Part shown: piece by piece, positions 4,193 through 22,983 of the stretch | Position numbering within the stretch: position 1 is the stretch's first letter | Layout: every line of letters begins with the position of its first letter | Assembly: GCA_027064425.1 (NCBI GenBank) | Contig: JAMOPO010000052.1 | Location: forward strand, 147,010 to 179,009 | Direction of reading: 5' to 3' | Source of the DNA: Methanobacteriota archaeon | GTDB lineage: Archaea > JAADCQ01 > Methanopyri > Methanopyrales > Methanopyraceae | DNA: 32,000 nt | Translations under genes and position numbers: made by a program | Notes under the pieces: generated by a model | The model's database searches: none | What the model saw: the letters and a program-made list of their open reading frames with translations, nothing else | What the model was told of the DNA's origin: nothing

Positions 4193-5147
4193 TGGGAGGG
4201 GACCCCCCATCGCATGGTAGTGCCGGGACCGGCTCGCCCTCCAAATACCTCAGCCCCAGCAGGCACAGCCCTCGCGCCTCGAGGTCCTCACCCGCGAAGA
4301 CGGCCACCTCGCCACCCCACAGCTCCGACACCCTCCGTTTTAAAAGTTCGTTTTTAACACCACCGCCCGAGAGCACCAGCAGGTCCGCGTCGAACCGGGA
4401 CGCGTTCCTCACGATCGTCTCCGCCACCAGCTCGGTCACCGTCCGCAGCGCGTCCTCCGGCTCCCCCTCGAACTCGGAGAGCACGGGCTTCAGCAGCCGC
4501 TCCTGCTCCGGCGGAACGACGCCTAGACTGCCCTTGACCGGGCCGAACACCGGCTGACCGTCCGCCTCCAACCCCTCCAGCCTCCGCCTCAGCCCTCCGT
4601 CCACCTCGCCCCGGGCCGCGGCCCGCCCGCCCTCGTCGTACTCCTCCCCCAGCAGCTCCCGGGCCGCCAGATCGATGGGAAAGGTGCCGGGGCACACGAC
4701 CGCCTTCCCGAAGTCCGGGTCGCCGCCCTCGATCGGCGTCACGACCGCCATCGCGCCCACGTCCACGTGCACGCAGTCCGGGTACTCCTCCGCCACGCAG
4801 TACGGCGCGCCCACGGCGTCACCGTCCGGGGCTCCCCACGGGTCCCCGTACACCGCCAGCGTGGGCACGCCCGTCCGCTCGTGGATCATCGGTCCCAGGA
4901 TCAGACCCAGCTCGTCCACGATCGTGCCCACGACGACCAGGTCCGGATCCACCTCCCGGACCCGGCGGACGACCCGGGGGGCGATCTCGCGGCGCAGCGC
5001 GCGCCGGCTCTCCTCGAGCGGGAACACGCACGAGATCTTGCCGAAGACCCCCTCCTCCCGGGCCACGATCTCCCACTCGCCCCGCTCGTTCATCAAGCAG
5101 TAGTCCGTGCCCGTGTTCCCCAGCTGAACCCCCAGCACCCGGACCAA
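4116..5147 (-). CDS. ASKHA-fold (actin/Hsp70/sugar-kinase) ATPase-like protein, possibly methanogenesis-marker-12 / AnmK-like
   Basis: Phosphate-1-like GVQLGNTGTDY, phosphate-2-like HVDVGAMAV, and adenosine motif LVLSGGGVKNELL. Start set at TTG 5147 (GTG 5138 is an alternative), because the first 38 codons of the track ORF are S/P-rich and cover the divergent promoter. The C-terminal tail overlaps tbp. Confidence 0.45.
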   Translation of the reverse strand: MVRVLGVQLGNTGTDYCLMNERGEWEIVAREEGVFGKISCVFPLEESRRALRREIAPRVVRRVREVDPDLVVVGTIVDELGLILGPMIHERTGVPTLAVYGDPWGAPDGDAVGAPYCVAEEYPDCVHVDVGAMAVVTPIEGGDPDFGKAVVCPGTFPIDLAARELLGEEYDEGGRAAARGEVDGGLRRRLEGLEADGQPVFGPVKGSLGVVPPEQERLLKPVLSEFEGEPEDALRTVTELVAETIVRNASRFDADLLVLSGGGVKNELLKRRVSELWGGEVAVFAGEDLEARGLCLLGLRYLEGEPVPALPCDGGSPPNGGRIEGNRARGRHPEHRGLGGSEG

Positions 5148-5172
5148 GCGCGCCGGCCCCCTTCCCGATGAC

Positions 5173-5182
5173 GATTTAAGAG
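5173..5182. promoter_or_regulatory. Bidirectional TATA-like box (GATTTAAGAG) between the ASKHA gene and rpl22
   Basis: This is the only AT-rich element in the 77-nt divergent spacer. It lies about 48 nt upstream of the rpl22 TTG and about 30 nt upstream of the ASKHA TTG on the other strand. Confidence 0.45.
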
Positions 5183-5224
5183 CAGTGAAACCCCGGCCGG
5201 GGTCCGGAAACGGGGGCGGATCGC

Positions 5225-5704
5225 TTGACGAGGACGAAGAAGTGGCATTACTCGATTCCACCCGAGGAGCTGGACGAGGACCGCACCGCCAAGGCCTTCA
5301 TCCGCGAGCTGAGGATCTCGCCCAAGCACGCCCGCGAGATCTGCCGGGCCATCCGCGGCAAGCCGCTCGACGAGGCCAAGGAGTTCCTGAAGCGCGTGAT
5401 CCGGAAGGAGGAGGCGGTGCCCTTCAGGAAGCACAAAAAGAAGGTTCCGCACCGCCGGCAGATCCGGCCGGGATGGGACGCCGGTAGGTTCCCGCAGAAG
5501 GCCGCGCGCGAGATCCTACGGGTCCTGGAGCACGCGGAGGCCAACGCCGAGCAGAAGGGCCTGGACACGGACCGCCTCTACATAAAGCACATAGCGGCGC
5601 ACAAGGGCCGCGTGATCCGCGGCTGGATCCCGCGAGCCTTCGGGCGAGCGACCCCGTTCAACACGCCCACCACGCACATCGAGGTGATCCTGGAGGAGCG
5701 CTAG
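5225..5704 (+). CDS. rpl22: 50S ribosomal protein L22 (uL22)
   Basis: [33 protein letters not shown] and the C-terminal [19 protein letters not shown] are typical of archaeal uL22. TTG start with a TATA-like box about 48 nt upstream. Confidence 0.9.
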
Positions 5705-5718
5705 GGGGAGCCCCCGCC

Positions 5719-6435
5719 ATGGTGATGTACGGTGAGAACGTCCCGGTGCACAAGAAGTTCGTGCAGTACGGCATGCTGAAGACCGAGCTGGACGAGTACC
5801 TGGAGAAGGAGCTGGATCGCGCCGGTTACGGCGGGATGCGGCTCCAGCGCGTGCCGAACGCGACCAAGATCATCGCGTACGTCGAGCGGCCGGCCATCGC
5901 CATCGGTCGCCGCGGGCGCAACATCCGCCGCATCGAGGAGGAGGTGCAGGAGAAGTTCCCGCTCCTGGGCCGCGTCACGATCGAGGTCAAGGAGATCCCA
6001 GTACCGGAGCTCAACCCACGCGTCGTCGCCCGCCGGCTCGCGTCCGCGATCGAGCGCGGCGTCCACTTCCGTCGTGCGGCCTACGGCGCCCTGCGTCGCA
6101 TCATGAACGCGGGTGCCAAGGGCGCGCTCATCAAGCTCTCGGGCAAGCTGATCGGCGCTCGGGCCCGGACGGAGAAGTTCATGGACGGCGTGGTCAAGTA
6201 CTGCGGCGAGCCCGGTGACGAGTACATGATCGAGGGCTACGTCCAGGCGATCACCAAGCCGGGAGCCATTGGCGTTACCGTAAAGATCATGCCACCCGAC
6301 GTGGAACTGCCGGACGAGATCGAGGTCAAGCCGCCGGAGGAGGTGGAGGACAAGCTGAAGGAGCTCGTCGGCGAAAAGGCCGAGGAGGAGAGCGAGGAGG
6401 AGAAGCCGGAGGAGTCCGAGGAGGGGGAGGAGTAG
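5719..6435 (+). CDS. rps3: 30S ribosomal protein S3 (uS3)
   Basis: KH-domain region ERPAIAIGRRGRNIRRIEEEV followed by GAKGALIKLSGKL. Acidic C-terminal tail. Lies 14 nt after rpl22. Confidence 0.93.
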   Translation: MVMYGENVPVHKKFVQYGMLKTELDEYLEKELDRAGYGGMRLQRVPNATKIIAYVERPAIAIGRRGRNIRRIEEEVQEKFPLLGRVTIEVKEIPVPELNPRVVARRLASAIERGVHFRRAAYGALRRIMNAGAKGALIKLSGKLIGARARTEKFMDGVVKYCGEPGDEYMIEGYVQAITKPGAIGVTVKIMPPDVELPDEIEVKPPEEVEDKLKELVGEKAEEESEEEKPEESEEGEE

Positions 6436-6438
6436 CCC

Positions 6439-6672
6439 ATGGGCAAGTACAAGCTGCACTCGGACGACATCCGCGAGATGTCCCCGGAGGAGCGGCGCGA
6501 GAAGCTCAAGGAGCTTAAGGCGGAGCTGCTCAAGGAGATGACCTCCAAGTCCGTCGCCGGCGTCCCGGAGAATCCCGGGAGGGTAAGAGAAATAAAGAAG
6601 AACATCGCCAGAATTCTCACGATAGAGCGCGAGGAGGAGCTTAAGAAAATCCGAGAGGCCGAAAAACGCTGA
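6439..6672 (+). CDS. rpl29: 50S ribosomal protein L29 (uL29)
   Basis: 77 aa with the typical uL29 pattern IREMSPEERREKLKELKAELLKE...PGRVREIKKNIARILT. Lies 3 nt after rps3. Confidence 0.9.
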   Translation: MGKYKLHSDDIREMSPEERREKLKELKAELLKEMTSKSVAGVPENPGRVREIKKNIARILTIEREEELKKIREAEKR

Positions 6673-6690
6673 GGGGAAGGCCCCGGAAAG

Positions 6691-7011
6691 ATGCAGGACG
6701 AAGACGTCTGCCCCGTTTGCGGACTTCCGAAGGAGCTCTGTGTTTGTGAGGAGGTCTCTAAGGAGACCGTTGAGAAGATCAAGATCTACACGGAGCAGGT
6801 CCGGCCCGGCAAGATCGTCACCATCATCGAGGGCCTCGATGACACGGACGTTGACCTCCAGGAGCTCGCGAGCAAGTTGAAGAAGGAGTGCGCCTGCGGA
6901 GGCACCGCCAAGGAGGGCAAGATCATCCTACAGGGCGATCACCGGAACAAGGTCCGGGAGTACCTGATTAAGAAGGAAGGGTTCCCGGAAGACACCATCG
7001 AGGTCTCCTAG
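6691..7011 (+). CDS. sui1: Translation initiation factor aSUI1 (eIF1 homologue)
   Basis: N-terminal CPVCG...CVC zinc knuckle followed by the SUI1 core (KIKIYTEQVRPGKIVTIIEGL...LKKECACGGTAKEGKIILQGDHRNKV). Confidence 0.9.
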   Translation: MQDEDVCPVCGLPKELCVCEEVSKETVEKIKIYTEQVRPGKIVTIIEGLDDTDVDLQELASKLKKECACGGTAKEGKIILQGDHRNKVREYLIKKEGFPEDTIEVS

Positions 7012-7736
7012 CCGGCACCGGCCCTGAGCCCGGCGATGAACACCCTCCTACCAGAGACCTCCCGCGGGAACGCCACCCCAACCTTCACCTTGAACCCCTC
7101 TTTCTCCAGGAACTTGCCCCGGATCCGGCACACGGTCAGCTGGTGACGCACCGAGTCTTCGGCCCGCTTCAGCTCGCGCTTAAGCCACTCGTACTCGCTT
7201 TCTTCTTTCACGCCGGGCCGCACCCCTAGTTCGTCTATTATCACCCTAGGGCTCGCCCGCCCGTAGCAGCACGGGACCACCAGTGCGACGCGCGCCCCGA
7301 GCTCCCGGGCCAGCTCCAGCATCCGGTCCGTTAGCGTGCCGCAGAGGTGCAGTCCGACCACGACGTCCGCCCGTTTCACGCTGATCCCGACGCGGCCCGA
7401 GACCACCTCGTGCAGGTCCCACGTCTCGAACCTCAGGTTGCTCACACCCACGGACTCCAGGTACTCCTCCAGGACCGGCCACGACTTGAACTCGCGGACG
7501 TCGAACCCCAGCACCTCGCACGAGGGACACGACAGGGCCATCGCGGCGGTCAGCGCCCCGCGACCGCACCCGGCGTCCACGATCACGTCTCCCGGCCTGA
7601 CCCACGTGCACAGGAGCTCCAGCAGCCTCCCCACCTGCTCCCGCTTACGATGGGCGTCCCGGGCCGAGCTGGGGAACGCCTCTCGAGGCAGGTACAGCCG
7701 CTCCTCCCCGTGGGGGCCACGATACTTGACCTCCAC
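7008..7736 (-). CDS. Class I SAM-dependent methyltransferase (HLCG / PCCY motif type, Trm13/METTL25-like)
   Basis: SAM-binding motif I VIVDAGCGRGALT, followed by VVGLHLCGTLTD and VVPCCYG. The 4-nt convergent overlap is with sui1, and the 5' end overlaps the Rpp29 start. Confidence 0.7.
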   Translation of the reverse strand: MEVKYRGPHGEERLYLPREAFPSSARDAHRKREQVGRLLELLCTWVRPGDVIVDAGCGRGALTAAMALSCPSCEVLGFDVREFKSWPVLEEYLESVGVSNLRFETWDLHEVVSGRVGISVKRADVVVGLHLCGTLTDRMLELARELGARVALVVPCCYGRASPRVIIDELGVRPGVKEESEYEWLKRELKRAEDSVRHQLTVCRIRGKFLEKEGFKVKVGVAFPREVSGRRVFIAGLRAGAG

Positions 7737-7980
7737 GGCTCACCCCCCGAGGCCCGAGGACCTCCTTGGCAAAAAATTCAGGGTCGTAAGGGCCCGCTCC
7801 CGGCCTCACTACGGCACCCGCGGCAGGATCCTTGGCTTCACCAGGAACTGCCTGGTCTACGGCGACCGCCGGGACCAGAAGCTCCTACCGCTCGACGGAG
7901 TCATCCTCGAGGTGGAAACCGAGGAGGGGAGGATCAGGGTGGAGGGGGACCAGCTACTCCGACTCCTTCGCGATCCTTAG
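7726..7980 (+). CDS. rnp1: RNase P protein component 1 (Rpp29/Pop4 homologue), minimal 84-aa form
   Basis: Sm-like Rpp29 core LLGKKFRVVRARSRPHYGTRGRILGFTRNCLVYG...LPLDGVILEVETEEGRIRVEGDQL. The only in-frame start candidate (ATG/GTG/TTG) upstream of the core and near the opposite-strand methyltransferase start is TTG 7726. Everything upstream in the track ORF (7336..) is shadow of the opposite methyltransferase. Confidence 0.7.
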   Translation: MTSTAHPPRPEDLLGKKFRVVRARSRPHYGTRGRILGFTRNCLVYGDRRDQKLLPLDGVILEVETEEGRIRVEGDQLLRLLRDP

Positions 7981-8712
7981 CAGCTCAATGGGTACTGGCA
8001 CGACCAGCGTGACGTTCTCCTCCGCGGACACCTCCGAGAGCGTCTGAAGCAGCCGCAGCAGCCCCGGATCCACGCCCAGCTTCTCCGCCGCCTCCTTCAG
8101 GTCCTTAGCGGCCTGGCGCTCGGCCCGGGCCTGGATGATCCTCGCCCGCCGGTCCCGCTCGGCCTCCGCCTGCCGCGCCATCGCCCGCCGCATCTCCTCC
8201 GGGAGGACGACGTCCCGGATCTCCACGTCCACGATCCTAACGCCCCAGTCCCTCGTCTTCTCGTCGATGATCTCCTTGATCCGCTCGCTCAGCTCCTCCC
8301 GCTTGGCCAGCACGTCGTCCAGCTCCACCTCGCCCAGGACCGATCGAAGGGTCGTCTGGGCCAGGTTGAACACCGCCCCCTCGTAGTCCCCCACGTTGAG
8401 CACCGCGCGGGCCGGGTCGACCACGCGGTAGTAGATCACGGCGTCCACCTTGATCGGCACGTTGTCCCTCGTGATCACCTCCTGCGGCGGGATCTCCCGG
8501 GTGATGACCCGCAGGTCCACCTTAACCAGCCGGTCGATGACCGGGATGATCAGGTTCAGCCCGGGTGGTCGCGTGCCCACGTACCTGCCCAACCGCAAGA
8601 GCACGCCGCGCTCGTACTCGTTCAACACCCTCACGGACATGGCCAGCAGGACCAGCGCCGCCCCGAGACCGACCGCCAGCCACTTCCACGGGATCGTCGC
8701 CCACGAGATCAT
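7954..8712 (-). CDS. Stomatin/prohibitin-family (SPFH, band 7) membrane protein
   Basis: N-terminal TM helix, then NEYERGVLLRLGRY...PGLNLIIPVIDRLVKVDLR...TRDNVPIKVDAVIYYRV and a coiled-coil AEAERDRRARIIQARAE. Confidence 0.9.
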   Translation of the reverse strand: MISWATIPWKWLAVGLGAALVLLAMSVRVLNEYERGVLLRLGRYVGTRPPGLNLIIPVIDRLVKVDLRVITREIPPQEVITRDNVPIKVDAVIYYRVVDPARAVLNVGDYEGAVFNLAQTTLRSVLGEVELDDVLAKREELSERIKEIIDEKTRDWGVRIVDVEIRDVVLPEEMRRAMARQAEAERDRRARIIQARAERQAAKDLKEAAEKLGVDPGLLRLLQTLSEVSAEENVTLVVPVPIELLRIAKESE

Positions 8713-9146
8713 CGCTCTTTAACCCCCTCCCGCGAGGGTTCCGCCGGCTCGACCTCGAGCCGGCTCCCCAGCACCCTTCTCACGACGACGCGGTCACCCT
8801 CGCCGAGATCCGCCTCGGACACGGCGTCCCAGACCTCGCCTCGCACCTCCACTCGGAGCGGATCCGAGGACACCACCACTCCCTCCTCACCGCGCAGCTG
8901 GCTCGCGTCCGCGGGGCCGCCCTCCGCCGACCCGGCCCGCCGGCGCCCGACCAGTCCCCAAACCTGCATCACCAAGATCAGCGCGCCAGGCGGCCCGGTG
9001 ACCAGGAGGAGCTTGGGATCTCGGAGCCAGCTTCCCAGCCATAGGAGCCCGACTCCCACCGCGGAGACGACCCCGGTGTTGGCCAGGCAGTCCGCGGCGA
9101 TCATGGTCCCACCCGAAAGCATGAGGACGTGCGGGAGCCAGTCCAC
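8709..9146 (-). CDS. NfeD-like membrane protein (short form, C-terminal OB domain)
   Basis: Hydrophobic N-terminal half plus C-terminal GEEGVVVSSDPLRVEVRGEVWDAVSE..GDRVVVRRV, an OB-like beta segment. It has a 4-nt overlap with the downstream stomatin gene, which is the classic NfeD-stomatin pair. Confidence 0.7.
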   Translation of the reverse strand: MDWLPHVLMLSGGTMIAADCLANTGVVSAVGVGLLWLGSWLRDPKLLLVTGPPGALILVMQVWGLVGRRRAGSAEGGPADASQLRGEEGVVVSSDPLRVEVRGEVWDAVSEADLGEGDRVVVRRVLGSRLEVEPAEPSREGVKER

Positions 9147-9191
9147 GGCCCGGACCCCGCTACCTCTATTTCCACTACGAGCGTGAACCGA

Positions 9192-10514
9192 GTGGGGAGC
9201 ACCGTGGACGTCATCGTGGGTGCCGGTCCGGCGGGGCGGACCTGCGCGCTAGTGCTGGGCCGGGCGGGTAGAAAAGTCCTGCTAATTGACCGGAAGGGTA
9301 AGAAGGGGGTCGGTGGGAAGTGCCTCAACGAGGCGTGCATGGTGGTGGGCGCGCTGGTCGAGGTCGCGCGGTTGGTGGCCTGGTCCAGGCTGGGGATCCC
9401 CGGGGTTGAGCTGTCGGTGGACGTGGATTACAGGGAGCTGACGCGCGGGGTGAAAAAGACGCTCGCCAAGATCAGGTCCAAGCTGCTCAGGGAGGTGCGA
9501 GACGCCGGCGTCGAGGTGGTCAGGGGCGAGGTGGATCGGGTCGAGGAGGGTCCGGCGGTTCGGGTGAACGGTGAGCGGCTGGAGGCGGATCACGTCCTCC
9601 TCGCGACCGGCTCCGTGCCCAAGGTCCCCGACGTGGACGGCGTGGAGCTGGACGACGTGGTGACCTACCGGGAGCTCTTGGACATCGACCTCCCGGGAGA
9701 GGCGTGCGTGGTCGGGGGCGGCCCGACGGCCCTGGAGCTAGCGTTCGTCTTCGCGGCGCTCGGGTCCGAGGTCACCCTGACCTACCGGTCGCAGCTGCTG
9801 CCGGGCTACCCGCGTGAGGTGGTCAAGGAGGCGGTCCGGGACCTGAAGTTGGTCGGCGTCGAGGTGGTGCGCGGGGGCGAGCTGAGGGAGATCCGGGAGA
9901 CGACCAACGGGCTGGAGTGCGAGTTCGAGTGCGGCTTCGTGGTGGCGGACGTCGTGCTGCTGGGCACGGGGCTGCGCCCGAACTCCGAGGTGGCGGCCAG
10001 GTCCGGGATCGAGGTGGGTGAGGATGGGGAGGTCGTGGTTGACGACCGGATGAGGACCTCCATGCCGGGGGTGTACGCGGCGGGCGACGTCACCGGCCCT
10101 CCCTACCTGGCCCCGGTGGCGAGGTACGAGGGGCTGGTGGCGGCCCTGAACATGCTCGGGCGCGATGCGCGGCGCGAGCACCCCTCAATACCTCGGGTCG
10201 TGAGACTCTTCCGCGACATCGGGCGCACGGAGGTTAAGGCGGCGTGGGAGGGGCGTCGCGAGGCTCCGGCCGGCGGCTCGGCCTTCTGGCTGTTCGCCCG
10301 CGGGTTTGAGGGGAAGCTGGTGGGGAGAAGGAGAGGCAAGACGTCCGAGCTGTTCACGGTGGGCCCGAACGCGTCGGAGTTCCTCCACTACGCCGGCCTC
10401 GTGCTGGACGAGAACTCCGGCGGATCGGAGGTCATCGAGGTGCACCCGACGGCCGATCCCGTCATCCACCTGGTGAAGGAGCTCAGGCTGGAGGACCTAA
10501 TGAACCGCTCTTAA
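9192..10514 (+). CDS. Class I pyridine nucleotide-disulfide oxidoreductase (dihydrolipoamide dehydrogenase / glutathione reductase family)
   Basis: FAD motif DVIVGAGPAGRTCA, redox-active GGKCLNEAC, second Rossmann motif ACVVGGGPTALELA, YAAGDV, and a C-terminal HPT motif (EVHPTADP). The start is uncertain: GTG at 9183, 9192 or 9204. The track start 9129 overlaps the NfeD gene. Confidence 0.7.
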   Translation: MGSTVDVIVGAGPAGRTCALVLGRAGRKVLLIDRKGKKGVGGKCLNEACMVVGALVEVARLVAWSRLGIPGVELSVDVDYRELTRGVKKTLAKIRSKLLREVRDAGVEVVRGEVDRVEEGPAVRVNGERLEADHVLLATGSVPKVPDVDGVELDDVVTYRELLDIDLPGEACVVGGGPTALELAFVFAALGSEVTLTYRSQLLPGYPREVVKEAVRDLKLVGVEVVRGGELREIRETTNGLECEFECGFVVADVVLLGTGLRPNSEVAARSGIEVGEDGEVVVDDRMRTSMPGVYAAGDVTGPPYLAPVARYEGLVAALNMLGRDARREHPSIPRVVRLFRDIGRTEVKAAWEGRREAPAGGSAFWLFARGFEGKLVGRRRGKTSELFTVGPNASEFLHYAGLVLDENSGGSEVIEVHPTADPVIHLVKELRLEDLMNRS

Positions 10515-12169
10515 CCCTCCGGGAGCAGGTTCCTGGCCCTCTCCAGGTCCTCCTCGGTCACCTTCGGGAACACGGGCTCCGGCTCGGGTATCGAGCCGGC
10601 GCGCACGTCCCGGAGCGCCTCCTCCCACTCCTGATCGTGAACCGAGCTCTCGTAACCCAGGCTCCGCCACAGCTTGTCCGCGCTCTCCGGTAGGAACGGG
10701 GCCAGCATCACGGCTAGCGCCTTCACGATCCTCGCGCAGCCCTTCAGGACGCGCCTGCACTCCTCCGGGTCCTCCTTCCGCAGGTTCCACGGCTCCCGCT
10801 CCTGGAAGTACTCGTTCCCGAAGCTGGACAGGTCCAGGACCGCGTACAGTGCCTCCCGGAACTTGAAGTCCTCCAGCAGCTCCGTCACCCGCTCATGGTG
10901 CTCCTCGATCTCCTCGACGACCTCCTCCTCCGCCTCCACGCCCGGAATCTCACCGTCCAGGAACCGGTGGATGAACGAGAGCGTGCGGTACGCGAAGTTG
11001 CCCAGGTTGGCGATCAGCTCGTTGTTGATCTTGTCGCGGAACTCGTCCCAGGAGAAGTCCGCGTCCTTCGTCAGCGGGCTCATCGTGATCAGGTAGTACC
11101 GCAGGTAGTCCGCCGGGAACAGCTCCACGAAGTCTCGCACCCAGACGACCCAGCCCCGACTGGTGCTCATCTTCCGACCCTCGAGGGTCAGGTACTCACC
11201 CGCCACGACCGTGTGCGGCAGGTTCGCACCGACGCCCATCAGCATGGCCGGCCAGAACAGGACGTGGTGCACGATGATGTCCTTCCCGATGAAGTGGATG
11301 ATCTTAGTGTCACCATCGAACCAGTACTCCCTCCAGTCCCGACCCTCCCGCTCGCAGTACTGCTTCGTGAACGTGACGTACCCGATCGGTGCGTCGAACC
11401 ACACGTAAAACACCTTGTCCTCGTAGCCCTCGAGCGGGATGGGCACGCCCCAGTCGATGTCGCGAGTGATGTCCCAGTCTCGGAGCCCCTCCTTAATCCA
11501 CTCCAGCGCGTAGTTCCGGACGTTCCTGGGCAGGTTCTCGTTGGACTCTATCCACTCCTTCAGGTCCTCCTCGAACTCGCTGAGCTTGAAGAACAGGTGC
11601 TTTACCCTCCGCACCTCCGGCTCGGAGTTACAGATCACGCACCGCGGGTCCTCGAGCTGCGTGGGCTCGAGGTGCCGCCCGCACGCCTCGCAGTGATCAC
11701 CCCGCGCTCCCTCCTCACCGCAGTACGGGCACCGACCCTCCACGTACCGGTCCGGCAGGGGCCGCTCGCACTTCGGGCAGTACAGCTGCTCAACCTCACG
11801 CTCCTCGATGTACCCCTTCTCGTGCAACCGCTCGAAGAACCAGTGGGTCATCTTCACGTGCTCCTCGTTGAACTCCCGGCACGTGCACGAGAACTCGTCG
11901 AACTCAATGTTCAGCCGCTCCAGGTCCTCCTTGATCCTCTCGTGGTACTTGCGGACGATCTCCTCCGGCTCCTTGCCCTCGAGCTCGGCCTGCAGCGCGA
12001 TCGGGACCCCGTGGTTATCCGTGCCGCCGATGTGGACCGCGTCCACGCCTCGCATCTTGAGGAACCGGGTGTACACGTCCGCGGGCAGGTAGGTGCTGCG
12101 CACGTGCCCGATGTGCAGTGGTCCGTTGGTGTAGGCGAGGGCCGTCGTCACCAGGACCCGCTCGCTCAC
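10511..12169 (-). CDS. metG: Methionyl-tRNA synthetase
   Basis: HIGH motif (PLHIGHVRS), KMSKS motif (RKMSTSRG), zinc knuckles CPKC...CPYC...CEAC, and TDNHG. Confidence 0.93.
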   Translation of the reverse strand: MSERVLVTTALAYTNGPLHIGHVRSTYLPADVYTRFLKMRGVDAVHIGGTDNHGVPIALQAELEGKEPEEIVRKYHERIKEDLERLNIEFDEFSCTCREFNEEHVKMTHWFFERLHEKGYIEEREVEQLYCPKCERPLPDRYVEGRCPYCGEEGARGDHCEACGRHLEPTQLEDPRCVICNSEPEVRRVKHLFFKLSEFEEDLKEWIESNENLPRNVRNYALEWIKEGLRDWDITRDIDWGVPIPLEGYEDKVFYVWFDAPIGYVTFTKQYCEREGRDWREYWFDGDTKIIHFIGKDIIVHHVLFWPAMLMGVGANLPHTVVAGEYLTLEGRKMSTSRGWVVWVRDFVELFPADYLRYYLITMSPLTKDADFSWDEFRDKINNELIANLGNFAYRTLSFIHRFLDGEIPGVEAEEEVVEEIEEHHERVTELLEDFKFREALYAVLDLSSFGNEYFQEREPWNLRKEDPEECRRVLKGCARIVKALAVMLAPFLPESADKLWRSLGYESSVHDQEWEEALRDVRAGSIPEPEPVFPKVTEEDLERARNLLPEG

Positions 12170-17333: not shown

Positions 17334-17612
17334 TTACCTCCGCCGGGGTCGCCTACGCCTTCTCCTCGGGGGCCTACGCCTGCGTCTGGGCGGGATGAAC
17401 AGCTCCTTGCCCACGAATCTCTCCAACCGCTCCTTCGACTTGTCCCGGATCGCCACGTAGGGCTTGTCCGCAGGCCCGAACACGTCGACGATGATGCCCA
17501 CACGCTCCCGGCGGCGGGTCACCACGGGCGCGCCCAGCGGCGGTACCTCCTCGGCTCGGGCGATCAGGTTCCCCCGAGGGGTTACGTGCAGGGCCTTCCC
17601 GAGCCTGCGCAT
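17334..17612 (-). CDS. gar1: H/ACA RNP protein Gar1 with Arg/Pro-rich C-terminal tail
   Basis: MRRLGKALHVTPRGNLIARAEEVPPLGAPVV....VGIIVDVFGPADKPYVAIR is the archaeal Gar1 beta-barrel pattern. It lies 16 nt upstream of tfb, a gar1-tfb adjacency I recall as common in archaea. The tail is PPRRRRRPPRRRRRRPRRR. Confidence 0.85.
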   Translation of the reverse strand: MRRLGKALHVTPRGNLIARAEEVPPLGAPVVTRRRERVGIIVDVFGPADKPYVAIRDKSKERLERFVGKELFIPPRRRRRPPRRRRRRPRRR

Positions 17613-17648: not shown

Positions 17649-17662
17649 GCTTTATCCTTTAC
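17649..17662 (-). promoter_or_regulatory. TATA-like box (minus strand GTAAAGGATAAAGC) upstream of gar1-tfb
   Basis: Overlaps the stop codon of the ferredoxin/Zn-ribbon gene, about 43 nt upstream of the gar1 ATG. An SD-like GGAGGCGGTG follows about 5 nt before the ATG. Confidence 0.4.
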
Positions 17663-18176
17663 GCGTGAACCTCCGGCTAACGCGCTCCTGACGCGACCGC
17701 TTGTTGGCACACTCAGAGCACACGTCGACTTTCTTGTTGCTCTTAAACCTCTTACCACACAGTTTGCACCTGCACTCGTAGAGGCGCGCCCGCTTCCCCT
17801 CCCGCCTCGCCATCCGCTTGATCCGGCTCGTCCGCTCCACCTCCCGGGTCAGGTAGAACCAGGTATCACCGAACACGTCTCGGCCCCGCATGACCACCTT
17901 CCTCGCCACCTCCAGCCCGGACGGGTCCCCCCTCATGGCCCGGACCATCGCGCTTAAGAACTGCCTCTCCCGGTACCGGTAGATGTCGATGGCGTCGTTC
18001 GGGCAGACGCGGACGCACTCGTCGCACGCGTCGCAGGCCTCCAGGTTTACGATCACGACCTCGTCGCCCTTCACATCCAGCACGCCGCGGTCGCACACCT
18101 CCACGCAGAGCGCGCAGGAGGGACCCTCGCAGCGCTCCCGATCGATCTCGATCCTTCGGACCGCCAACTCCTCCAC
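17652..18176 (-). CDS. 2x[4Fe-4S] ferredoxin-domain protein fused to a basic C-terminal zinc ribbon
   Basis: Cys clusters CEGPSCALCVEVC and CDACDECVRVCP in the N-terminal 60 aa. C-terminal YECRCKLCGKRF....VCSECANKR is flanked by K/R-rich sequence. Confidence 0.65.
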   Translation of the reverse strand: MEELAVRRIEIDRERCEGPSCALCVEVCDRGVLDVKGDEVVIVNLEACDACDECVRVCPNDAIDIYRYRERQFLSAMVRAMRGDPSGLEVARKVVMRGRDVFGDTWFYLTREVERTSRIKRMARREGKRARLYECRCKLCGKRFKSNKKVDVCSECANKRSRQERVSRRFTRKG

Positions 18177-18184
18177 CCCAGGGG

Positions 18185-18589
18185 ATGAAACGCTTGAACG
18201 TGCATGTTAGGGAGCGGGAAGGAGACGTCGTGCTGGAGTTCTGCGGGGAGGACGGGTGCATCCAGGTGTCGGCCCGGGCCTTCTACACCGCGGTGATAAT
18301 GAGCGGCGAGGACACCGTGGAGAAGACCAAGGAGCTCCTCACCAAGCCCTTCGAGCTGCTCGGGGAGGATCCCCCCGAGGTGCGCGTCCGCAGGTCGGAG
18401 GATCCGGAGGGTACCCTGCTGAACCCTTGGGTGACCTCGTCGCACGAGGAGGTCGAGTTCTTTACGTTCGAGCTGGAACGGGGAGGCGAGACTTTAAAAC
18501 TCTCCTTGGCAGTCCCGCGCGGCTCTCGGGGCGGCACCTCAAAAATCAAGGAGGTCATTAACCTATTGAAGTCTCGACTCCCGTGGTGA
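18185..18589 (+). CDS. Hypothetical protein (134 aa), first gene of the FtsZ-like cassette
   Basis: Acidic, coding-like composition. ATG start 8 nt from the divergent ferredoxin-like gene start. No family recognised. Confidence 0.5.
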   Translation: MKRLNVHVREREGDVVLEFCGEDGCIQVSARAFYTAVIMSGEDTVEKTKELLTKPFELLGEDPPEVRVRRSEDPEGTLLNPWVTSSHEEVEFFTFELERGGETLKLSLAVPRGSRGGTSKIKEVINLLKSRLPW

Positions 18590-18607
18590 GCCGGAGGTGA
18601 GCTCGTC

Positions 18608-19537
18608 TTGTACCCGCGGGGTAGAAAGGCCACCCTGGCCGCGATCCTGCGCACGATCCTGAAGGATCAGCCCTCAACGCAGAAAGAGATAGCCGAGAAG
18701 GTGGGCGTCTCGCGGCGGTACGTGACGGAGCTGCTTCAGCCGCTGATGGAGAAGGGGGCCGTTTTCCGGACGTACGCCGTCGACATGACCAAGCTCCGCC
18801 GGCACTTCCCCGAGCTGTTCGAGGAGCTCGGTCGACACATCTACGAGGACATCGAGTCGCACCTGGAGAGCGTCCGCCCCTACTTCGAGCGGATGATCGA
18901 CCTGACGGAGTCACAGGTGGAGAGCGCGATCCTGGCCATCGAGGAGGACCCGAGCCTCGCCCAGAAGATCGTGAAGATGGACGAGGAGGTCAACCGGCTG
19001 GACGAGGAGATCCGGCTGTACGTTCGAGCGCTTCCAACGTTCCACCCGTGCGAGGAGGCGGGGAAAGTCTCGACGCTCCTCCTCGAGATCTCGCACTGCA
19101 TCGAGCGGATCGGAGACTACGCGTGCAACATCGCGGAGGTGGCGGACAGGATCGGAACGCTCTCCGACCTGGGGTGCTGGGAGGAGCTCAAGGAGGCCGC
19201 GGAGCGGGCCCGGTCGATGGTCTCGACCTCGTACGACGCGTTCCTATCCCTGTCCAAGCGTCGGGTCAAGAAGGCCGCGGAGGACGTGTACCGGCAGGAG
19301 GAGCGCGTCCACGATAGCATAATAAAGGCCTGCGACGATGCGATCAAGGAAACGGAGGAGTTTCCGTCCCGCGCCCGGTACCTCTTCGCCGTGTCACGCG
19401 TGACGAAGGACGTCGAGCGCATCGCGGACAAGGCCGTCGATATCGTCGACTACACGCGAGAGCTGGTCGAGGGTCGACCGCGCGACCTGACCCCGGAGCA
19501 GGAGGTGAGGGGAACCATCCCGGCCGACACCGCGTAA
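18608..19537 (+). CDS. Winged-HTH / PhoU-domain fusion protein
   Basis: TTG start 7 nt after GGAGGTGA. N-terminal wHTH (PSTQKEIAEKVGVSRRYVTELLQPLMEKGAV). Two PhoU repeats, each with the signature E(R)IGD/IAD: MDEEVNRLDEEI...IERIGDYACNIAE and EERVHDSIIKACD...VERIADKAVDIVD. Confidence 0.7.
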   Translation: MYPRGRKATLAAILRTILKDQPSTQKEIAEKVGVSRRYVTELLQPLMEKGAVFRTYAVDMTKLRRHFPELFEELGRHIYEDIESHLESVRPYFERMIDLTESQVESAILAIEEDPSLAQKIVKMDEEVNRLDEEIRLYVRALPTFHPCEEAGKVSTLLLEISHCIERIGDYACNIAEVADRIGTLSDLGCWEELKEAAERARSMVSTSYDAFLSLSKRRVKKAAEDVYRQEERVHDSIIKACDDAIKETEEFPSRARYLFAVSRVTKDVERIADKAVDIVDYTRELVEGRPRDLTPEQEVRGTIPADTA

Positions 19538-19553
19538 GGGGGGTGCCGGGACG

Positions 19554-20279
19554 GTGCACTACGTCGGGCTGGGCGGCTTCGGATGCCGGTTCTCCTCCCA
19601 CGCTTCCAACGCCGGCTTCCGAGTGCTCGCCTGCGTCGGCTCCAAGGGTGACCTCCTGCGGGTCTCGGAGGGCAAGACCGTCGAGGTAGCACCGGACATC
19701 GGCTACAACCGCGACTGGCGTCGAGCCTCCGAGGAGCTCGCGGATCACGAGAAGGCCATGAACACGATCCGCAAGTGCCTCGAGCAGCACCTGGACGGCC
19801 CCACGCTCATGGCGTTCGGACTGGGCGGAGCAGTGGGGTTCGCGCTCGCCCGACCCTTCCTCGAGGACCCTCCCGTCCCCTTCGTCCTCCTCGTCACGAT
19901 CCCGGGCGAGTCCGAGGATCCCCAGGTCCGACGCAACGCGCGCGAGCAGGTGGACGTGGTGCTGAAGGTCTCCTCCAAGCTCCCGATCCTCTGGGTGGAC
20001 AACGATATTGGTGGAGGCTACGACCGGGTCAACCGGATGCTCGAGAAGACGCTCTCCGAGTTCCGGGAGTTCCTGAACGTCCCGGTCGAGGAGCTCCCGA
20101 ACATGGCCGGGAACTACGCGGTCTCCCCCTCCCTACCCGGCGAGCGCGTGACCGAGGAGATCGTCAAGACGAACCCCAGCGAGATCCGTCGGCTCGTGAG
20201 CGATCGGGAGCCCGAGGAGCGCGTGATCAAGGAGGAGCGGAAGGGGCCGGACCCGGACTCACTGAGGGAGCTGTTCTAG
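19554..20279 (+). CDS. FtsZ/tubulin-fold-like protein, GTPase domain only, degenerate nucleotide-binding motifs
   Basis: GTG start 16 nt after the PhoU-like stop, with a G-rich SD. Loop order and spacing follow the FtsZ N-domain: GLGGFG (T1 position), IGYNRDW (T3 position), GLGGAVGFA (T4 signature position), IPGESED (T5 position), RRNAREQVDVVL, and ILWVDND (T6 position). No C-terminal domain or T7 loop. Confidence 0.55.
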   Translation: MHYVGLGGFGCRFSSHASNAGFRVLACVGSKGDLLRVSEGKTVEVAPDIGYNRDWRRASEELADHEKAMNTIRKCLEQHLDGPTLMAFGLGGAVGFALARPFLEDPPVPFVLLVTIPGESEDPQVRRNAREQVDVVLKVSSKLPILWVDNDIGGGYDRVNRMLEKTLSEFREFLNVPVEELPNMAGNYAVSPSLPGERVTEEIVKTNPSEIRRLVSDREPEERVIKEERKGPDPDSLRELF

Positions 20280-20292
20280 GGGGCGGCCTCCG

Positions 20293-20520
20293 ATGACTCG
20301 GAAGGCCAGGGTCACGCTCACGCTCTCAGAGGACGCCCTGGCCCGGGTCCTGGCGGCCAAGGACGCGCTGGAGGGGGAGAGCATCTCCTCCACGGTCGGC
20401 AAGCTGGTGAAGTTCGGGTTCGCCTACCTACGAGAGAAGTTCCCCGAGCTCTTCGAAGGCATCGACCTGGAGGAGTACCGCCACAAGGCCCGAGAGCGCT
20501 GGTTCAGCGAGCGGTCATAA
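20293..20520 (+). CDS. Ribbon-helix-helix (CopG/MetJ-like) small DNA-binding protein
   Basis: 75 aa. The N-terminal strand-helix pattern KARVTLTLSEDALARVLAAKD is typical of RHH. Lies 13 nt after the FtsZ-like gene. Confidence 0.5.
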   Translation: MTRKARVTLTLSEDALARVLAAKDALEGESISSTVGKLVKFGFAYLREKFPELFEGIDLEEYRHKARERWFSERS

Positions 20521-20529
20521 CTTTTAACT
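20518..20529 (+). promoter_or_regulatory. TATA-like box (ATAACTTTTAAC) upstream of argJ
   Basis: AT-rich element overlapping the RHH gene stop, about 30-35 nt upstream of the argJ ATG 20558. It suggests argJ starts a new transcription unit. Confidence 0.4.
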
Positions 20530-20557: not shown

Positions 20558-21721
20558 ATGGAGGTTCCCTCGGGCTTCCTGCTTGGCGGCGTGAAGCGGG
20601 ACGTAGGCGTGGGCCTGCTGTTCTCCGAGACCAGGTGCTCGGTCGCGGGCGTATTCACGCGGAACACCCTCCGCGCCGCTCCCGTCGAATACTCCGAGGA
20701 GGTGTGCTCCCGCGGGCGCGCCCGTGGAGTGATCGTCAACAGTGGCCACGCGAACGCTCTCACCGGCGAGGAGGGGATGCAGGACGTCCTCCGGATGGCC
20801 GACGGCGCCTCACGGCTGTTCGGGGTGCCCGACGACGAGGTTCTAGTGTGCTCGACCGGAGTCATCGGCGAGCGGCCGCCCGTGGACAGGATCCTGAAGC
20901 TGGCCGAGGAGGTCTGGGAGTCCCGGATGGGGTCCGATCCGGAGCACGTCCGCGCCTTCAACGAGGCCATCATGACGACGGACACTCGGGAGAAGGTCTC
21001 GTCGTACTCCGGCGGCGACTGGTGCCTCCTCGGGGTGGCGAAGGGCGCCGGCATGATCCACCCGCGGATGTCGACCATGCTGGCCTTCCTGATCACGGAC
21101 GTCCGGGCCGCGTCCCACGATCTCCAGCCCGTGCTGCGAGACGCCGTCGAGGACACGTTCAACATGATCAGCGTGGACGCCGACGAGAGCACCAACGACA
21201 CCGTCCTCCTGATGGCCAACGGGGCGTCCGGGCTCGAGGTGGGCAGGGACGTGCCGGAGTCTGAGTTCGAGAAGGCCGTGAGGAAGGTGTGCGAGGACTT
21301 GGCCCGGGAGATCGCTCGGGACGGTGAGGGATCGACCAAGCTCCTGGAGGTGGAGGTGCGCGGGGCTCGGTCCCGGAAGGAGGCCAGAAGGGCTGCCAGG
21401 GCGGTGGTCTCCTCCAACCTGGTGAAGGCCGCCCTCTTCGGCGAGGACCCGAACTGGGGGAGGGTGGGCGCGGCGATCGGCGCCGCGCGGGTCGATGTCG
21501 ACCCGAGCTCCCTCAAGATCATCTTCGAAAGCTCGGAGGGAAGGGTGGTAACCTACGACGGCGGTCCCGTCAAGTTCGATGAGGAGGAGGCGGCGCGGAT
21601 TTTATCCGACCGAGAGGTCCGGATCGTGGTGGACCTGGGAGTGGGTGACGAGTCCGCCCGCGCCTGGGGGTGCGACCTGACCTACGATTACGTCAAGATA
21701 AATGCCGAGTACCGCACGTGA
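20558..21721 (+). CDS. argJ: Bifunctional ornithine acetyltransferase / N-acetylglutamate synthase ArgJ
   Basis: [24 protein letters not shown], and [23 protein letters not shown] (the autoprocessing site region). C-terminal [16 protein letters not shown]. Confidence 0.92.
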
Positions 21722-22983
21722 AGATCGGGCGCGCACAGGGGAAGCCCGCCGTGCCGGAGGAGATCATCGAGCTCAAGGGTCACATCATCGACTCCCTGAT
21801 CCTGTCCAAGGTGCTAGACACGATCATGGAGATGGGCGGGGACTTCGAGATCCTAGAGTTCGAGGTCGGAAAGCGCAAGACGGACCCCAGCTACGCCAAG
21901 ATCCTTGTGAAGGCGGACGACCCCGACCACCTCAGCGAGATCATCACGGAGCTGAGAAAGTACGGCGCGGTGCCCGTCGAGTCGGACGAGGTCCGGGTGG
22001 AACCGGCCCCCGCCGACGGTGTCTGCCCGCGCGGCTTCTACACCACCACCAACCACCCGACCTTCGTGAAGTTCGACGGCGAGTGGATTGAGGTGGAAAA
22101 CATCGAGATGGACTGCGCGATCGTGATCTACCCGGAGGAGAAGCGGGCCGTGGCCAAGCCCATCCGGGAGGTAAAGAAGGGCGAGCTGGTGGTGGTCGGG
22201 GACCGCGGGGTCAAGGTCAAGCCGCCGGAGCGACCGCGCGGTAGGACCGGCATCTTCGGGTTCATGGAGAGCGACGTGTCGCCCGAGAAGCCCACGCCCA
22301 CCCTGATCCGTCAGATCGCCGAGGAGCTCGAGGAGCACCGGAAGAACGGCAAAATCGTCGTGGTGGTGGGGCCGGCCGTCATCCACGCCGGGGCCCGGGA
22401 CCACCTCGCGTGGATGATCCGGAACGGATACGTGGACGTTCTCTTCGCGGGCAACGCGGTGGCCGTGCACGACGTGGAGGCGAGCCTGTTCGGGACCTCG
22501 CTGGGCGTGGACCTGGAGACGGGGGAGCCCGTGAAGGGCGGGCACAGCCACCACCTGTACGCGATCAACGAGATCCGCCGCGTGGGCGGCCTCAAGCAGG
22601 CGGTGGAGAAGGGGATTCTGAAGGACGGGATCATGTACGAGTGCATCGTGAACGACGTGCCCTACGTCCTGGCGGGCTCGATCCGGGACGACGGACCCAT
22701 CCCGGACGTGATCACCGACGTCATGGAGGCGCAGAAGGAGATGCGGCGCCACCTGCGCGGAGCCACGCTGGTCCTCATGCTCGCCACGATGCTGCACTCG
22801 ATCGCCACCGGGAACCTGCTGCCGTCCTGGGTGAAGACCATCTGCGTGGACATCAACCCGGCCGTGGTCACGAAGCTCATGGATCGAGGCACGGCGCAGG
22901 CGCTGGGGATAGTGTCGGACGTGGGGGTGTTCCTGCCGGAGCTGGTGAAGGAGCTCAAGAAGATTCGGAACGACGGCGAGTAG
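21718..22983 (+). CDS. LOR/SDH-domain protein (TIGR00300-like), possible ornithine cyclodeaminase-type enzyme
   Basis: GTG 21718 overlaps the argJ stop (GTGA). The N-terminal regulatory-like domain [46 protein letters not shown] matches the LOR/SDH conserved region as I recall it. The C-terminal part is Rossmann-like ([15 protein letters not shown]). Confidence 0.6.

Follow-up and report, generated by a model that had tools for sequence, protein, structure and literature searches.

Four closely packed genes at positions 18185-20520 of a 32,000-nt stretch of DNA from a Methanobacteriota archaeon of the family Methanopyraceae (contig JAMOPO010000052.1; the whole 32-kb stretch is referred to here as the window) raise the question of what a protein with a tubulin/FtsZ-type fold does beside genes for two different predicted DNA-binding proteins, and whether all four genes belong to a single system. 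The coordinates of the open reading frames (ORFs) given here are positions within the window, which has a G+C content of ~67 %, and all four genes of the cassette lie on the plus strand:

18185-18589, plus strand: ORF1, 134 aa
18608-19537, plus strand: ORF2, 309 aa with a TTG start; winged helix-turn-helix (wHTH) domain at ~aa 11-55 fused to a two-repeat PhoU domain at ~aa 82-290
19554-20279, plus strand: ORF3, 241 aa with a GTG start; GTPase-type domain at aa 1-155, H7 and T7-like loop at aa 156-190, then two strands with short helices, a charged linker and a C-terminal peptide ending in PDSLRELF
20293-20520, plus strand: ORF4, 75 aa; CopG-like ribbon-helix-helix (RHH) domain at ~aa 3-40 with a C-terminal extension

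An earlier reading of the letters alone, referred to as the original prediction, had reported the same coordinates with gaps of 18 nt (ORF1/ORF2), 16 nt (ORF2/ORF3) and 13 nt (ORF3/ORF4), and its domain guesses of an orphan protein, a wHTH-PhoU fusion, an FtsZ-like protein and an RHH protein all hold, by Pfam for ORF2, by the fold for ORF3, and by relatives together with CopG for ORF4. Our tentative answer to the question is that the functional core of the locus is a two-gene module, a minimal tubulin-superfamily protein together with an RHH DNA-binding protein, in the layout of a partition cassette. The case for this module is wholly computational.

The sequence libraries are silent on ORF3, which has no Pfam match (PF00091 included) or NCBIfam match at E <= 1, and a phmmer search of ORF3 against the PDB sequences gave chance matches only. 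However, the FtsZ fold named in the original prediction, on which that reading had been made to depend, was recovered by structure and profile comparisons. An AlphaFold2 (AF2) model was built on a two-sequence alignment, with a predicted local distance difference test (pLDDT) of 76 and a predicted template modelling score (pTM) of 0.77. When it was compared to the PDB with Foldseek, the top 50 matches were all TubZ, PhuZ, CetZ or FtsZ (E 2.6e-7 and up, probability 1.00, TM(query) 0.51-0.65); TubZ of phage PhiKZ, Bacillus cereus and phage c-st came first, followed by CetZ and FtsZ. Against the viral library BFVD, the ten best matches were phage tubulins, after which the E value jumped twenty-fold to 0.02. 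An exhaustive HMMER search of 1.84 billion representatives returned 11 proteins, seven of them Pfam-negative and ~250 aa long, while three carry the Pfam Tubulin domain (E 1e-5 to 2e-4), one of these together with TubZ_C_3. A profile-profile comparison of the ORF3 family with the three Pfam-Tubulin-positive TubZ-like proteins by hhalign gave a probability of 94.7 % and an E value of 5.8e-8 over 170 columns. A plain Rossmann dinucleotide-binding protein was also considered, as a search of the family profile against the PDB sequences found NmrA-type Rossmann proteins over the segment GLGGAVG and no tubulin, and was rejected in view of the specificity for tubulins of both the fold searches and the profile-profile comparison. 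Model and profiles together support the assignment of ORF3 to the tubulin/FtsZ superfamily as a member far from the canonical ones.

The distance from the canonical members is visible in the loops, in the reduced C-terminal domain and in the tail, which are located as follows:

19818-19838, plus strand: T4-loop equivalent GLGGAVG (ORF3 aa 89-95), aligned to GGGTGSG with a four-residue deletion
20094-20117, plus strand: T7-like segment LPNMAGNY (ORF3 aa 181-188), in which N183 and A185 are invariant in the family
20202-20276, plus strand: charged linker and C-terminal peptide (ORF3 aa 217-241), with a pLDDT < 50 over aa 219-232; putative docking tail

The tubulin signature GGGTG[ST]G is absent from ORF3, and the family reads G-[LI]-x-G-A-[VT]-G at this position, lacking the Thr/Ser of the signature. 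G89, G92, A93 and G95 of ORF3 are invariant, and the 17 invariant positions of the family include all loop glycines. The T7-like loop, which was matched to the canonical T7 by model position only, reads N-x-A-[RAK]-x-D in five lineages outside Methanopyrus, as opposed to NMAGNY in the window and NLAGNY in Methanopyrus kandleri, where there is no acidic residue. After H7/T7, all that the model retains of a C-terminal domain is a remnant of two strands with short helices. Nearly all members of the family then have a charged low-complexity stretch followed by a C-terminal hydrophobic-x-[D/S/R/E]-hydrophobic-hydrophobic ending, examples being PWDIF, PLDFL, PWSLL, VLDLL, LLDLL, LTDII, FTDII and GFSRFL, with SLRELF in the window. 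The C-terminal tails of FtsZ and TubZ are docking handles. By eye, and as a lead only, the tails of the family resemble the SepF-binding peptide of Methanobrevibacter smithii FtsZ (NEDQLDDFIDGIF), which also ends in a hydrophobic residue.

ORF3 shares with canonical FtsZ the Rossmann-like fold of the GTPase domain, equivalents of the loops T1-T5 and a C-terminal peptide on a linker, but it differs in the sequence models, the signature motif and the C-terminal domain. An identification as FtsZ was rejected, as there is no FtsZ_C domain and no match to an FtsZ family model, the signature is missing, the C-terminal domain is reduced and no FtsZ is found among the HMMER matches. For M. kandleri, Supplementary Data 1 of Pende et al. 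lists AAM02034.1 as the only FtsZ, which is not the orthologue of ORF3 (PMC8178401).

The partner of ORF3 is less obvious from single-sequence searches, as ORF4 alone has no Pfam match. It begins with RKARVTLTLSEDAL and shows the stretch RVTLTLSEDAL and, further on, a G-E-S-I-S turn. When ORF4 was combined in one profile with the RHH genes located after the ORF3 homologues, the top PDB match was CopG (1b01, 2cpg; E 0.002), and the match at positions 3-40 spans the whole RHH; across the beta-strand, 8 of 13 residues of ORF4 match CopG. The proteins encoded at the same position in the relatives match Pfam RHH_1, RHH_3, RHH_5 and RHH_9 (E 1e-5 to 1e-3). These comparisons support ORF4 as a predicted member of the RHH (CopG/Arc/MetJ) superfamily.

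The ORF3 family is very small and comprises ~10 lineages from Methanopyri and "Methanobacteriota" metagenome-assembled genomes (MAGs) and from unbinned contigs of a few vent metagenomes. No match was found in IMG/VR, a tblastn search with one member against PLSDB plasmids and GenBank phages was negative, an initial scan of genome contigs with the Methanopyrus ORF3-ORF4 pair gave no match, and the matches of word-indexed searches with ORF3 and ORF1 were confined to the Methanopyrus lineage. Within the family, 8 of the 10 lineages have an RHH gene (75-121 aa) that begins <=70 nt downstream of the tubulin-like gene, and when all ORFs within 4 kb were compared with one another, the tubulin-like protein and the RHH protein were the sole proteins common across lineages. 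The lineages that share this adjacency are 25-45 % identical. The Methanopyrus branch is the most divergent, with E values of ~1e-11 to the rest of the family vs 1e-25 to 1e-48 among the others, and homologues of ORF1 and ORF2 stand beside family members only in the Methanopyrus loci. The conservation of the four-gene neighbourhood, which the original prediction had proposed to check, is therefore found across Methanopyrus, whereas outside this genus only the ORF3-ORF4 pair is kept. Its suggestion that a PhoU domain takes the place of a known adaptor fared worse: because ORF1 and ORF2 are absent next to the non-Methanopyrus family members, there is no evidence for the wHTH-PhoU protein as a substitute for a TubR-type adaptor.

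Some of the relatives carry short direct repeats ahead of the pair. At locus L002, 7.4 copies of an 11-nt unit (5845-5923) are followed by the TATA-like site TTTTAATAT and a gene start at 6001; at locus L022, 6.9 copies of an 11-nt unit with a sequence unlike that of L002 (1637-1711) lie 20 nt ahead of the gene start. These two are the sole period-11 arrays with >=5 copies in 167 kb of non-redundant loci and the window. The element order in the array-bearing relatives is array, promoter, tubulin-like NTPase gene and RHH gene. Locus L009 has four GGTTCCCC-type boxes with spacings of 11, 31 and 11 nt ahead of a TATA-like site, and at locus L021 a repeat-rich non-coding region of ~900 nt lies upstream of the pair. 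This region (141-830) contains 11-nt arrays, two copies of a 42-nt unit that recurs at 4232-4317, and four ~48-nt units 76-96 nt apart, and looks like the origin or centromere region of a small replicon.

The genomic settings of the family are diverse. At L017, in a Methanopyri MAG, a 23S rRNA gene, the tubulin-like gene, the RHH gene, a gene for a 704-aa Ski2/Hel308-like helicase and tRNA-Cys were found together (3418-11253), and the start of the helicase gene overlaps the stop of the RHH gene. L016 and L017 are in one Methanopyri MAG, which therefore has two paralogues of the family. A solo tubulin-like gene on the chromosome of a Methanopyri MAG (L003) has no RHH gene, lies between the genes for MgtC and a histone deacetylase, and is preceded at 118 nt by a tRNA-Val gene (5807-5883); this tRNA-adjacent copy could be the remnant of an integration event. 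Other copies are found on contigs that consist almost entirely of ORFans, or beside genes for MCM, Hjc, PCNA or an Apyc1-like hydrolase. The latter (L008, 4990-5640) encodes a metallo-beta-lactamase fold with a match to the Anti-Pycsar Apyc1 family directly upstream of the tubulin-like/RHH pair, a hint of a viral setting. The ORFan-rich contigs L006 (6888-7247) and L009 (5827-6153) share an additional small protein (E 3e-16), L002 and L009 have a common gene order at their left ends, and the three contigs appear to be related elements.

In Methanopyrus itself, M. kandleri AV19 and another Methanopyrus assembly have the four genes in an identical order, likewise enclosed by the ferredoxin gene and argJ. 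The wider synteny is kept as well, with IGPD, TFB and Gar1 at one flank and the ArgZ-like, ATP-cone and CBS genes at the opposite flank. The copy in the window is chromosomal, as shown by the flanking TFB, Gar1 and argJ. An entry identical to ORF3 derives from a 204.5-kb metagenome contig. The next relative, with 65-67 % identity, is the cluster of M. kandleri AV19 AAM02076.1 / Q8TX16, which also includes Methanopyrus sp. SNP6, KOL6 and several MAGs. The M. kandleri protein has been annotated as FtsZ since the deposition of the genome, under the name "FtsZ GTPase involved in cell division" and also as "cell division protein FtsZ". The identities of the proteins to M. kandleri AV19 are:

ORF1: 47 %
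ORF2: 72.5 %
ORF3: 66.7 %
ORF4: 90.7 %
TFB: 83 %
ArgJ: 70 %

Because of this conservation at the protein level, all four ORFs are real genes under selection. Judged by these identities, ORF4 is the most constrained of the four genes and ORF1 a fast-evolving one, with its 47 % as opposed to 70-83 % for the nearby housekeeping genes.

ORF2 is the gene directly upstream of the pair in Methanopyrus. It matches Pfam PhoU (PF01895, E 1.5e-27) in two stretches and HTH_24 (E 2e-8), with TrmB and MarR at the cut-offs, and PhoU homologues in the PDB with E values of 1e-11 to 2e-5. Both PhoU repeats contain the E/D-x-x-x-D motif in the form E-R-I-x-D, which reads ERIGD and ERIAD in the translation. ORF2 differs from the PhoU equivalogs in that it remains below their score cut-offs (TIGR02135, 82.1 vs 130.25 bits; NF008332, 56 vs 342), and neither Pst families nor pst transporter genes were found within +/-10 kb of the cassette in M. 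kandleri. It resembles the archaeal regulators in which an N-terminal DNA-binding domain is fused to PhoU, such as TK2245 of Thermococcus kodakarensis, but the latter has an AbrB/SpoVT DNA-binding domain instead of a winged helix of the MarR/TrmB type. We regard ORF2 as a putative ligand-responsive transcription regulator.

ORF1 has no Pfam or NCBIfam match, and its homologues are confined to the Methanopyrus lineage. Its true start is probably the TTG at 18194, according to the database entry P0027 and the alignment with M. kandleri, which results in a protein of 131 aa. The AF2 model (pLDDT 84) shows an alpha/beta fold for which Foldseek found no match in the PDB (best E 0.02, TM 0.30). The boundaries of the cassette and the candidate promoters are as follows:

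17652-18176, minus strand: divergent ferredoxin/Zn-ribbon gene, whose start is 8 nt from ORF1; left boundary
18491-18501, plus strand: TATA-like element ACTTTAAAACT within the 3' end of ORF1; candidate promoter for ORF2-ORF4
20517-20529, plus strand: TATA-like box ATAACTTTTAACT, located 29-41 nt ahead of the argJ ATG (20558) and sharing sequence with the stop codon of ORF4; right boundary

The divergent gene on the left and the TATA-like box of argJ on the right had both been given as boundaries in the original prediction, as had the Shine-Dalgarno (SD)-like G-rich sites before the second and third genes, which read GGAGGTGA at 18596-18603 before ORF2 and GGGGGGTG at 19538-19545 before ORF3; ORF4 is preceded by one as well (GGGGGCGG). 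The ORF2 of M. kandleri keeps both GGAGGTGA and the TTG start. The distance between the starts of the ferredoxin gene and ORF1 is 8 nt in the window vs 26 nt in M. kandleri, so that both promoters must sit within each other's coding sequence. M. kandleri has ATAGTTTTTAAACT at the position equivalent to the TATA-like box of argJ (start 20558; Pfam ArgJ, E 3.6e-138), and the T-run of ATAACTTTTAACT may also terminate the cassette. The single operon of the original prediction has to be restricted: the genes are tightly packed and ORF2-ORF4 are probably co-transcribed, but a four-gene unit is unsupported, as the TATA-like site in the 3' end of ORF1 suggests a promoter of their own. AT-rich octamer sites are rare (27 in 32 kb), and the final 100 nt of ORF1 contain two of these, the second being TCAAAAATCAA at 18539-18549. 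The counterpart in M. kandleri is ATACTTTTAAAAGTTTT, located 41-57 nt ahead of its ORF2 start, and the AT-rich sites in the 3' end of ORF1 resemble the TATA-like boxes of argJ in the window and in M. kandleri. The gaps of 16 and 13 nt contain no AT-rich site. A putative promoter within the 3' end of ORF1 would accordingly serve ORF2, ORF3 and ORF4 jointly, and ORF1 may have a transcript of its own. A scan for sigma-70 promoters and terminators was uninformative, as the host is an archaeon.

The same region holds a 17-nt inverted repeat (18481-18497 / 18566-18582) with 88 % complementarity and arms 68 nt apart, which spans the TATA-like element of ORF1 and ends 25 nt before ORF2; in its place, M. 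kandleri has the perfect palindrome ACTTTTAAAAGT. Within ORF2, CATAATAAAG (19318-19327) contains two rare ATA Ile codons in a gene with 67 % G+C, and the corresponding position of M. kandleri, ~230 nt before ORF3, reads AAAAACATAATTAG; the site could be an internal or antisense promoter. Beyond the cassette, argJ is followed by a 437-aa gene (21670-22983), the ORF start of which overlaps the end of argJ by ~50 nt and which is the orthologue of an M. kandleri gene with Saccharop_dh_N / ArgZ-like domains. The Gar1 homologue (17334-17612, minus strand) has a C-terminal arginine/proline tail, RRRRRPPRRRRRRPRRR. No known RNA families or tRNAs were found in the window.

To place the pair in the context of known systems, three types of cassette are relevant. 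In the type III partition system TubZRC and the phage tubulins (TubZ of the Bacillus plasmids pBtoxis/pXO1, TubZ of Clostridium phage c-st, PhuZ), the gene of a tubulin-superfamily NTPase stands beside that of a small DNA-binding protein, as it does here. TubZ and PhuZ are the best structural matches of ORF3, and the sole Pfam-Tubulin-positive sequence matches are TubZ-like. TubZ and PhuZ typically carry a C-terminal tail that is functional and attached by a flexible linker, ORF3 has both linker and tail, and iterated repeats upstream of the operon also occur in the relatives of ORF3. However, TubZ has 300-480 aa and the motif GGGTG[ST]G, whereas ORF3 has ~240 aa, GLGGAVG and only a remnant of the C-terminal domain; the host of the window is an archaeon, and its copy is chromosomal and without repeats. 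At the window, the conserved partner is not TubR, there are no tubC repeats, and the locus is not on a plasmid or phage.

The layout of the relatives, with short direct repeats at the promoter, the gene of a filament-forming NTPase and the gene of a small RHH adaptor, is that of the type II cassette ParMRC of plasmid R1 and of type Ib ParA/ParG. In parC-parM-parR of plasmid R1, the parC iterons to which the RHH protein ParR binds are 11 bp long, and this length matches the 11-nt period of the arrays at L002 and L022. ParM has an actin fold and ParA is of the Walker type, as opposed to the tubulin fold of ORF3, which is not a ParM. Past the RHH fold, ParR shows no sequence relationship to the RHH proteins of the family, and ParG reaches only E 0.87. 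In the family, the RHH gene is downstream in 8 of 10 lineages and iterons occur in relatives only, where the RHH protein would be their putative ligand.

On the chromosomes of Euryarchaeota, in cdrS-ftsZ2 (with cdrL), an RHH gene adjoins the gene of a tubulin homologue, as here, where ORF3 and ORF4 are probably co-transcribed. In haloarchaea, a second regulator gene, CdrL, is located upstream of cdrS-ftsZ2 (PMC7439475), a position corresponding to that of the wHTH-PhoU gene, although the regulator family is different. The CdrS-type RHH gene is upstream and not downstream as here, and ORF3 is not an FtsZ2, since it has no FtsZ_C and no Pfam or NCBIfam FtsZ match. The original prediction had not recognised the combination as a described system. 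In the literature searched, there was indeed no description of the minimal tubulin family, of its consistent RHH partner or of the 11-nt arrays in the relatives; but an RHH gene beside a tubulin homologue is known from cdrS-ftsZ2 (PMC7439475, PMC9871819, PMC8178401), and the M. kandleri orthologue carries the FtsZ label. What is already known are the genes in a published genome under this label, the adjacency of RHH and tubulin homologue, and filament-plus-adaptor cassettes as such.

From the observed genes, folds and domains, family membership, pair conservation and repeats in relatives, we infer a mechanism in which polymerisation, DNA binding, tail docking, co-transcription and the biological role itself are conditional. 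RHH dimers would bind short iterated sites cooperatively, both to autoregulate the operon and to mark the DNA; ORF3 would polymerise head to tail via its GTPase domain and the H7/T7 surface; and its C-terminal peptide on the flexible charged linker would connect the filament with the RHH-DNA complex or with a different partner. The module circulates in the chromosomes of Methanopyri and on ORFan-rich, probably mobile, contigs from the same vents, and in Methanopyrus it would probably be co-transcribed with the wHTH-PhoU gene from the promoter within the 3' end of ORF1. Accordingly worded, the reading that we prefer, without great confidence, is that ORF3-ORF4 is a filament-plus-RHH-adaptor module of the partition type that has been fixed and modified in the Methanopyrus chromosome behind a PhoU-type regulator. 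In the window, the module is most likely a regulated DNA-positioning or cytoskeletal accessory and not a plasmid partition system. A more far-reaching version is doubtful: the pair would represent a DNA-segregation system of archaea that has not been described, a type II/III hybrid in which a ~240-aa tubulin-like motor is connected by its C-terminal peptide to an RHH centromere binder on 11-bp iterons, carried by mobile elements of the hyperthermophilic Methanopyri and domesticated in the Methanopyrus chromosome under a PhoU-type sensor-regulator.

Several observations weigh against the partition-type reading. GTP binding, hydrolysis and polymerisation of ORF3 are all uncertain because the T4 loop is non-canonical (GLGGAVG with its four-residue deletion) and the T7-like loop of Methanopyrus has no acidic residue. 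In TubZRC, the DNA-binding partner is a winged-helix TubR encoded upstream, as opposed to the RHH protein encoded downstream here. The match of ORF4 to the hidden Markov model of the family RHH proteins is marginal (13 bits, E 0.012 among 2184 ORFs), and hhalign relates ORF4 only weakly to the other RHH proteins of the family (probability 6 %, E 0.006). Two lineages have a tubulin-like gene without an RHH gene, and some copies are clearly chromosomal, for example L017 by its 23S rRNA. The plasmid or virus nature of the ORFan-rich contigs is unproven, with no IMG/VR, PLSDB or GenBank phage match, and the large ORFs of L009 have no Pfam or PHROGs annotation. In the window there are no iterated centromere-like repeats near the cassette and no array of note in 32 kb; the repeat scan agrees in this with the original prediction. 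Its comparison to partition systems thus finds backing in the tubulin-like/RHH pair of 8 of 10 lineages and in the iterons of two relatives, but not in repeats of the window itself.

The main rival is a control module of cell division like cdrS-ftsZ2, in which the RHH protein would be a transcription factor of division genes and ORF3 would join, cap or modulate the Z-ring of the host; we consider this rather unlikely, as we do the assumption that the tail of ORF3 mimics FtsZ's C-terminal domain and binds SepF or the FtsA-like protein that only Methanopyri have. It is also questionable that ORF3 stands in for the missing FtsZ2 in Methanopyrus and, when on mobile elements, manipulates the division of the host. 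An RHH gene beside ftsZ2 is a conserved archaeal pattern, and CdrS regulates ftsZ2 (PMC7439475, PMC9871819, PMC8178401), yet the gene order here is the opposite. M. kandleri is listed with a single FtsZ (AAM02034.1), one SepF and one FtsA-like protein (PMC8178401, Supplementary Data 1), and therefore no separate FtsZ2 is recorded; at the same time, the matches of the HMMER search from ORF3 at E <= 0.001 included only TubZ-like proteins, with FtsZ1, FtsZ2 and CetZ all absent, though these are far commoner. The C-termini of the family (PWDIF, LTDII, FTDII, PLDFL, VLDLL, LRELF) resemble the SepF-binding peptide NEDQLDDFIDGIF of M. smithii FtsZ, but this likeness was noted by eye and the archaeal 'GID' motif is not literally there. 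The chromosomal conservation across Methanopyri fits a division function, and there is a precedent for the control of archaeal division by viral RHH proteins, namely aCcr1 (PMC9976878, PMC9976892); arrays of ~7 x 11 nt at the own promoter, on the other hand, are not obviously needed by a division regulator.

Two further explanations concern the cassette as a whole. The four genes could be mere neighbours, with ORF2 as a phosphate- or metal-responsive regulator of distant genes, ORF4 as an independent small repressor or antitoxin-like protein, ORF3 as a decayed pseudo-GTPase, possibly from an old integrated element, and the spacing as that of a compact genome. The four-gene order is found only in Methanopyrus, where the surrounding synteny is kept too, and ORF1 and ORF2 never stand beside other family members; the ferredoxin gene is also only 8 nt from ORF1, which means that tight spacing is general at this locus. 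The T4 loop and the missing acidic residue of T7 would suit a decayed protein, and solo copies without RHH exist, including the one with a tRNA-Val gene at a distance of 118 nt. However, ORF3 is 66.7 % identical to its M. kandleri orthologue where ArgJ reaches 70 %, so that it is under ordinary purifying selection and not in decay, its family keeps the 17 invariant positions with all loop glycines, ORF4 is conserved at 90.7 %, and the adjacency in 8 of 10 lineages at 25-45 % identity is not chance, which makes unrelated neighbours improbable. At the other extreme, all four proteins could form one system, with the wHTH-PhoU protein as a TubR-like adaptor or phosphate-sensing switch, the RHH protein as a second DNA-binding part and ORF1 as an accessory like TubY. 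The tight spacing, the probable co-transcription of ORF2-ORF4 and the retention of all four genes across Methanopyrus genomes agree with this, and the position of ORF2 matches that of the winged-helix tubR gene, which is generally known to lie upstream of tubZ. But with no homologue of ORF1 or ORF2 beside any other family member, the module therefore works without them; the wHTH domain of ORF2 matches only the generic MarR, TrmB and HTH_24 models, fusions of DNA-binding domains to PhoU are a general class of archaeal regulators (e.g., the AbrB-PhoU protein TK2245), and ORF1 evolves much faster than the other three, so a four-protein system is very improbable.

Returning to the partition-type module as the preferred explanation, if it works as proposed, no tubulin-based system of DNA positioning would have preceded it in Archaea, and no other system would have combined an RHH adaptor with a motor of the tubulin fold. 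Within the tubulin/FtsZ superfamily, ORF3 would then be among the smallest members and would provide a test of the minimum of the fold that is required for nucleotide-dependent polymerisation. Under either this or the division reading, the name "cell division protein FtsZ", by which databases list the M. kandleri orthologue, is misleading. If it is the division reading that is true, the finding would bear on how the Methanopyri, which have pseudomurein and for which one FtsZ, SepF and an FtsA-like protein but no FtsZ2 are listed, divide, and on the interference of mobile elements with this division.

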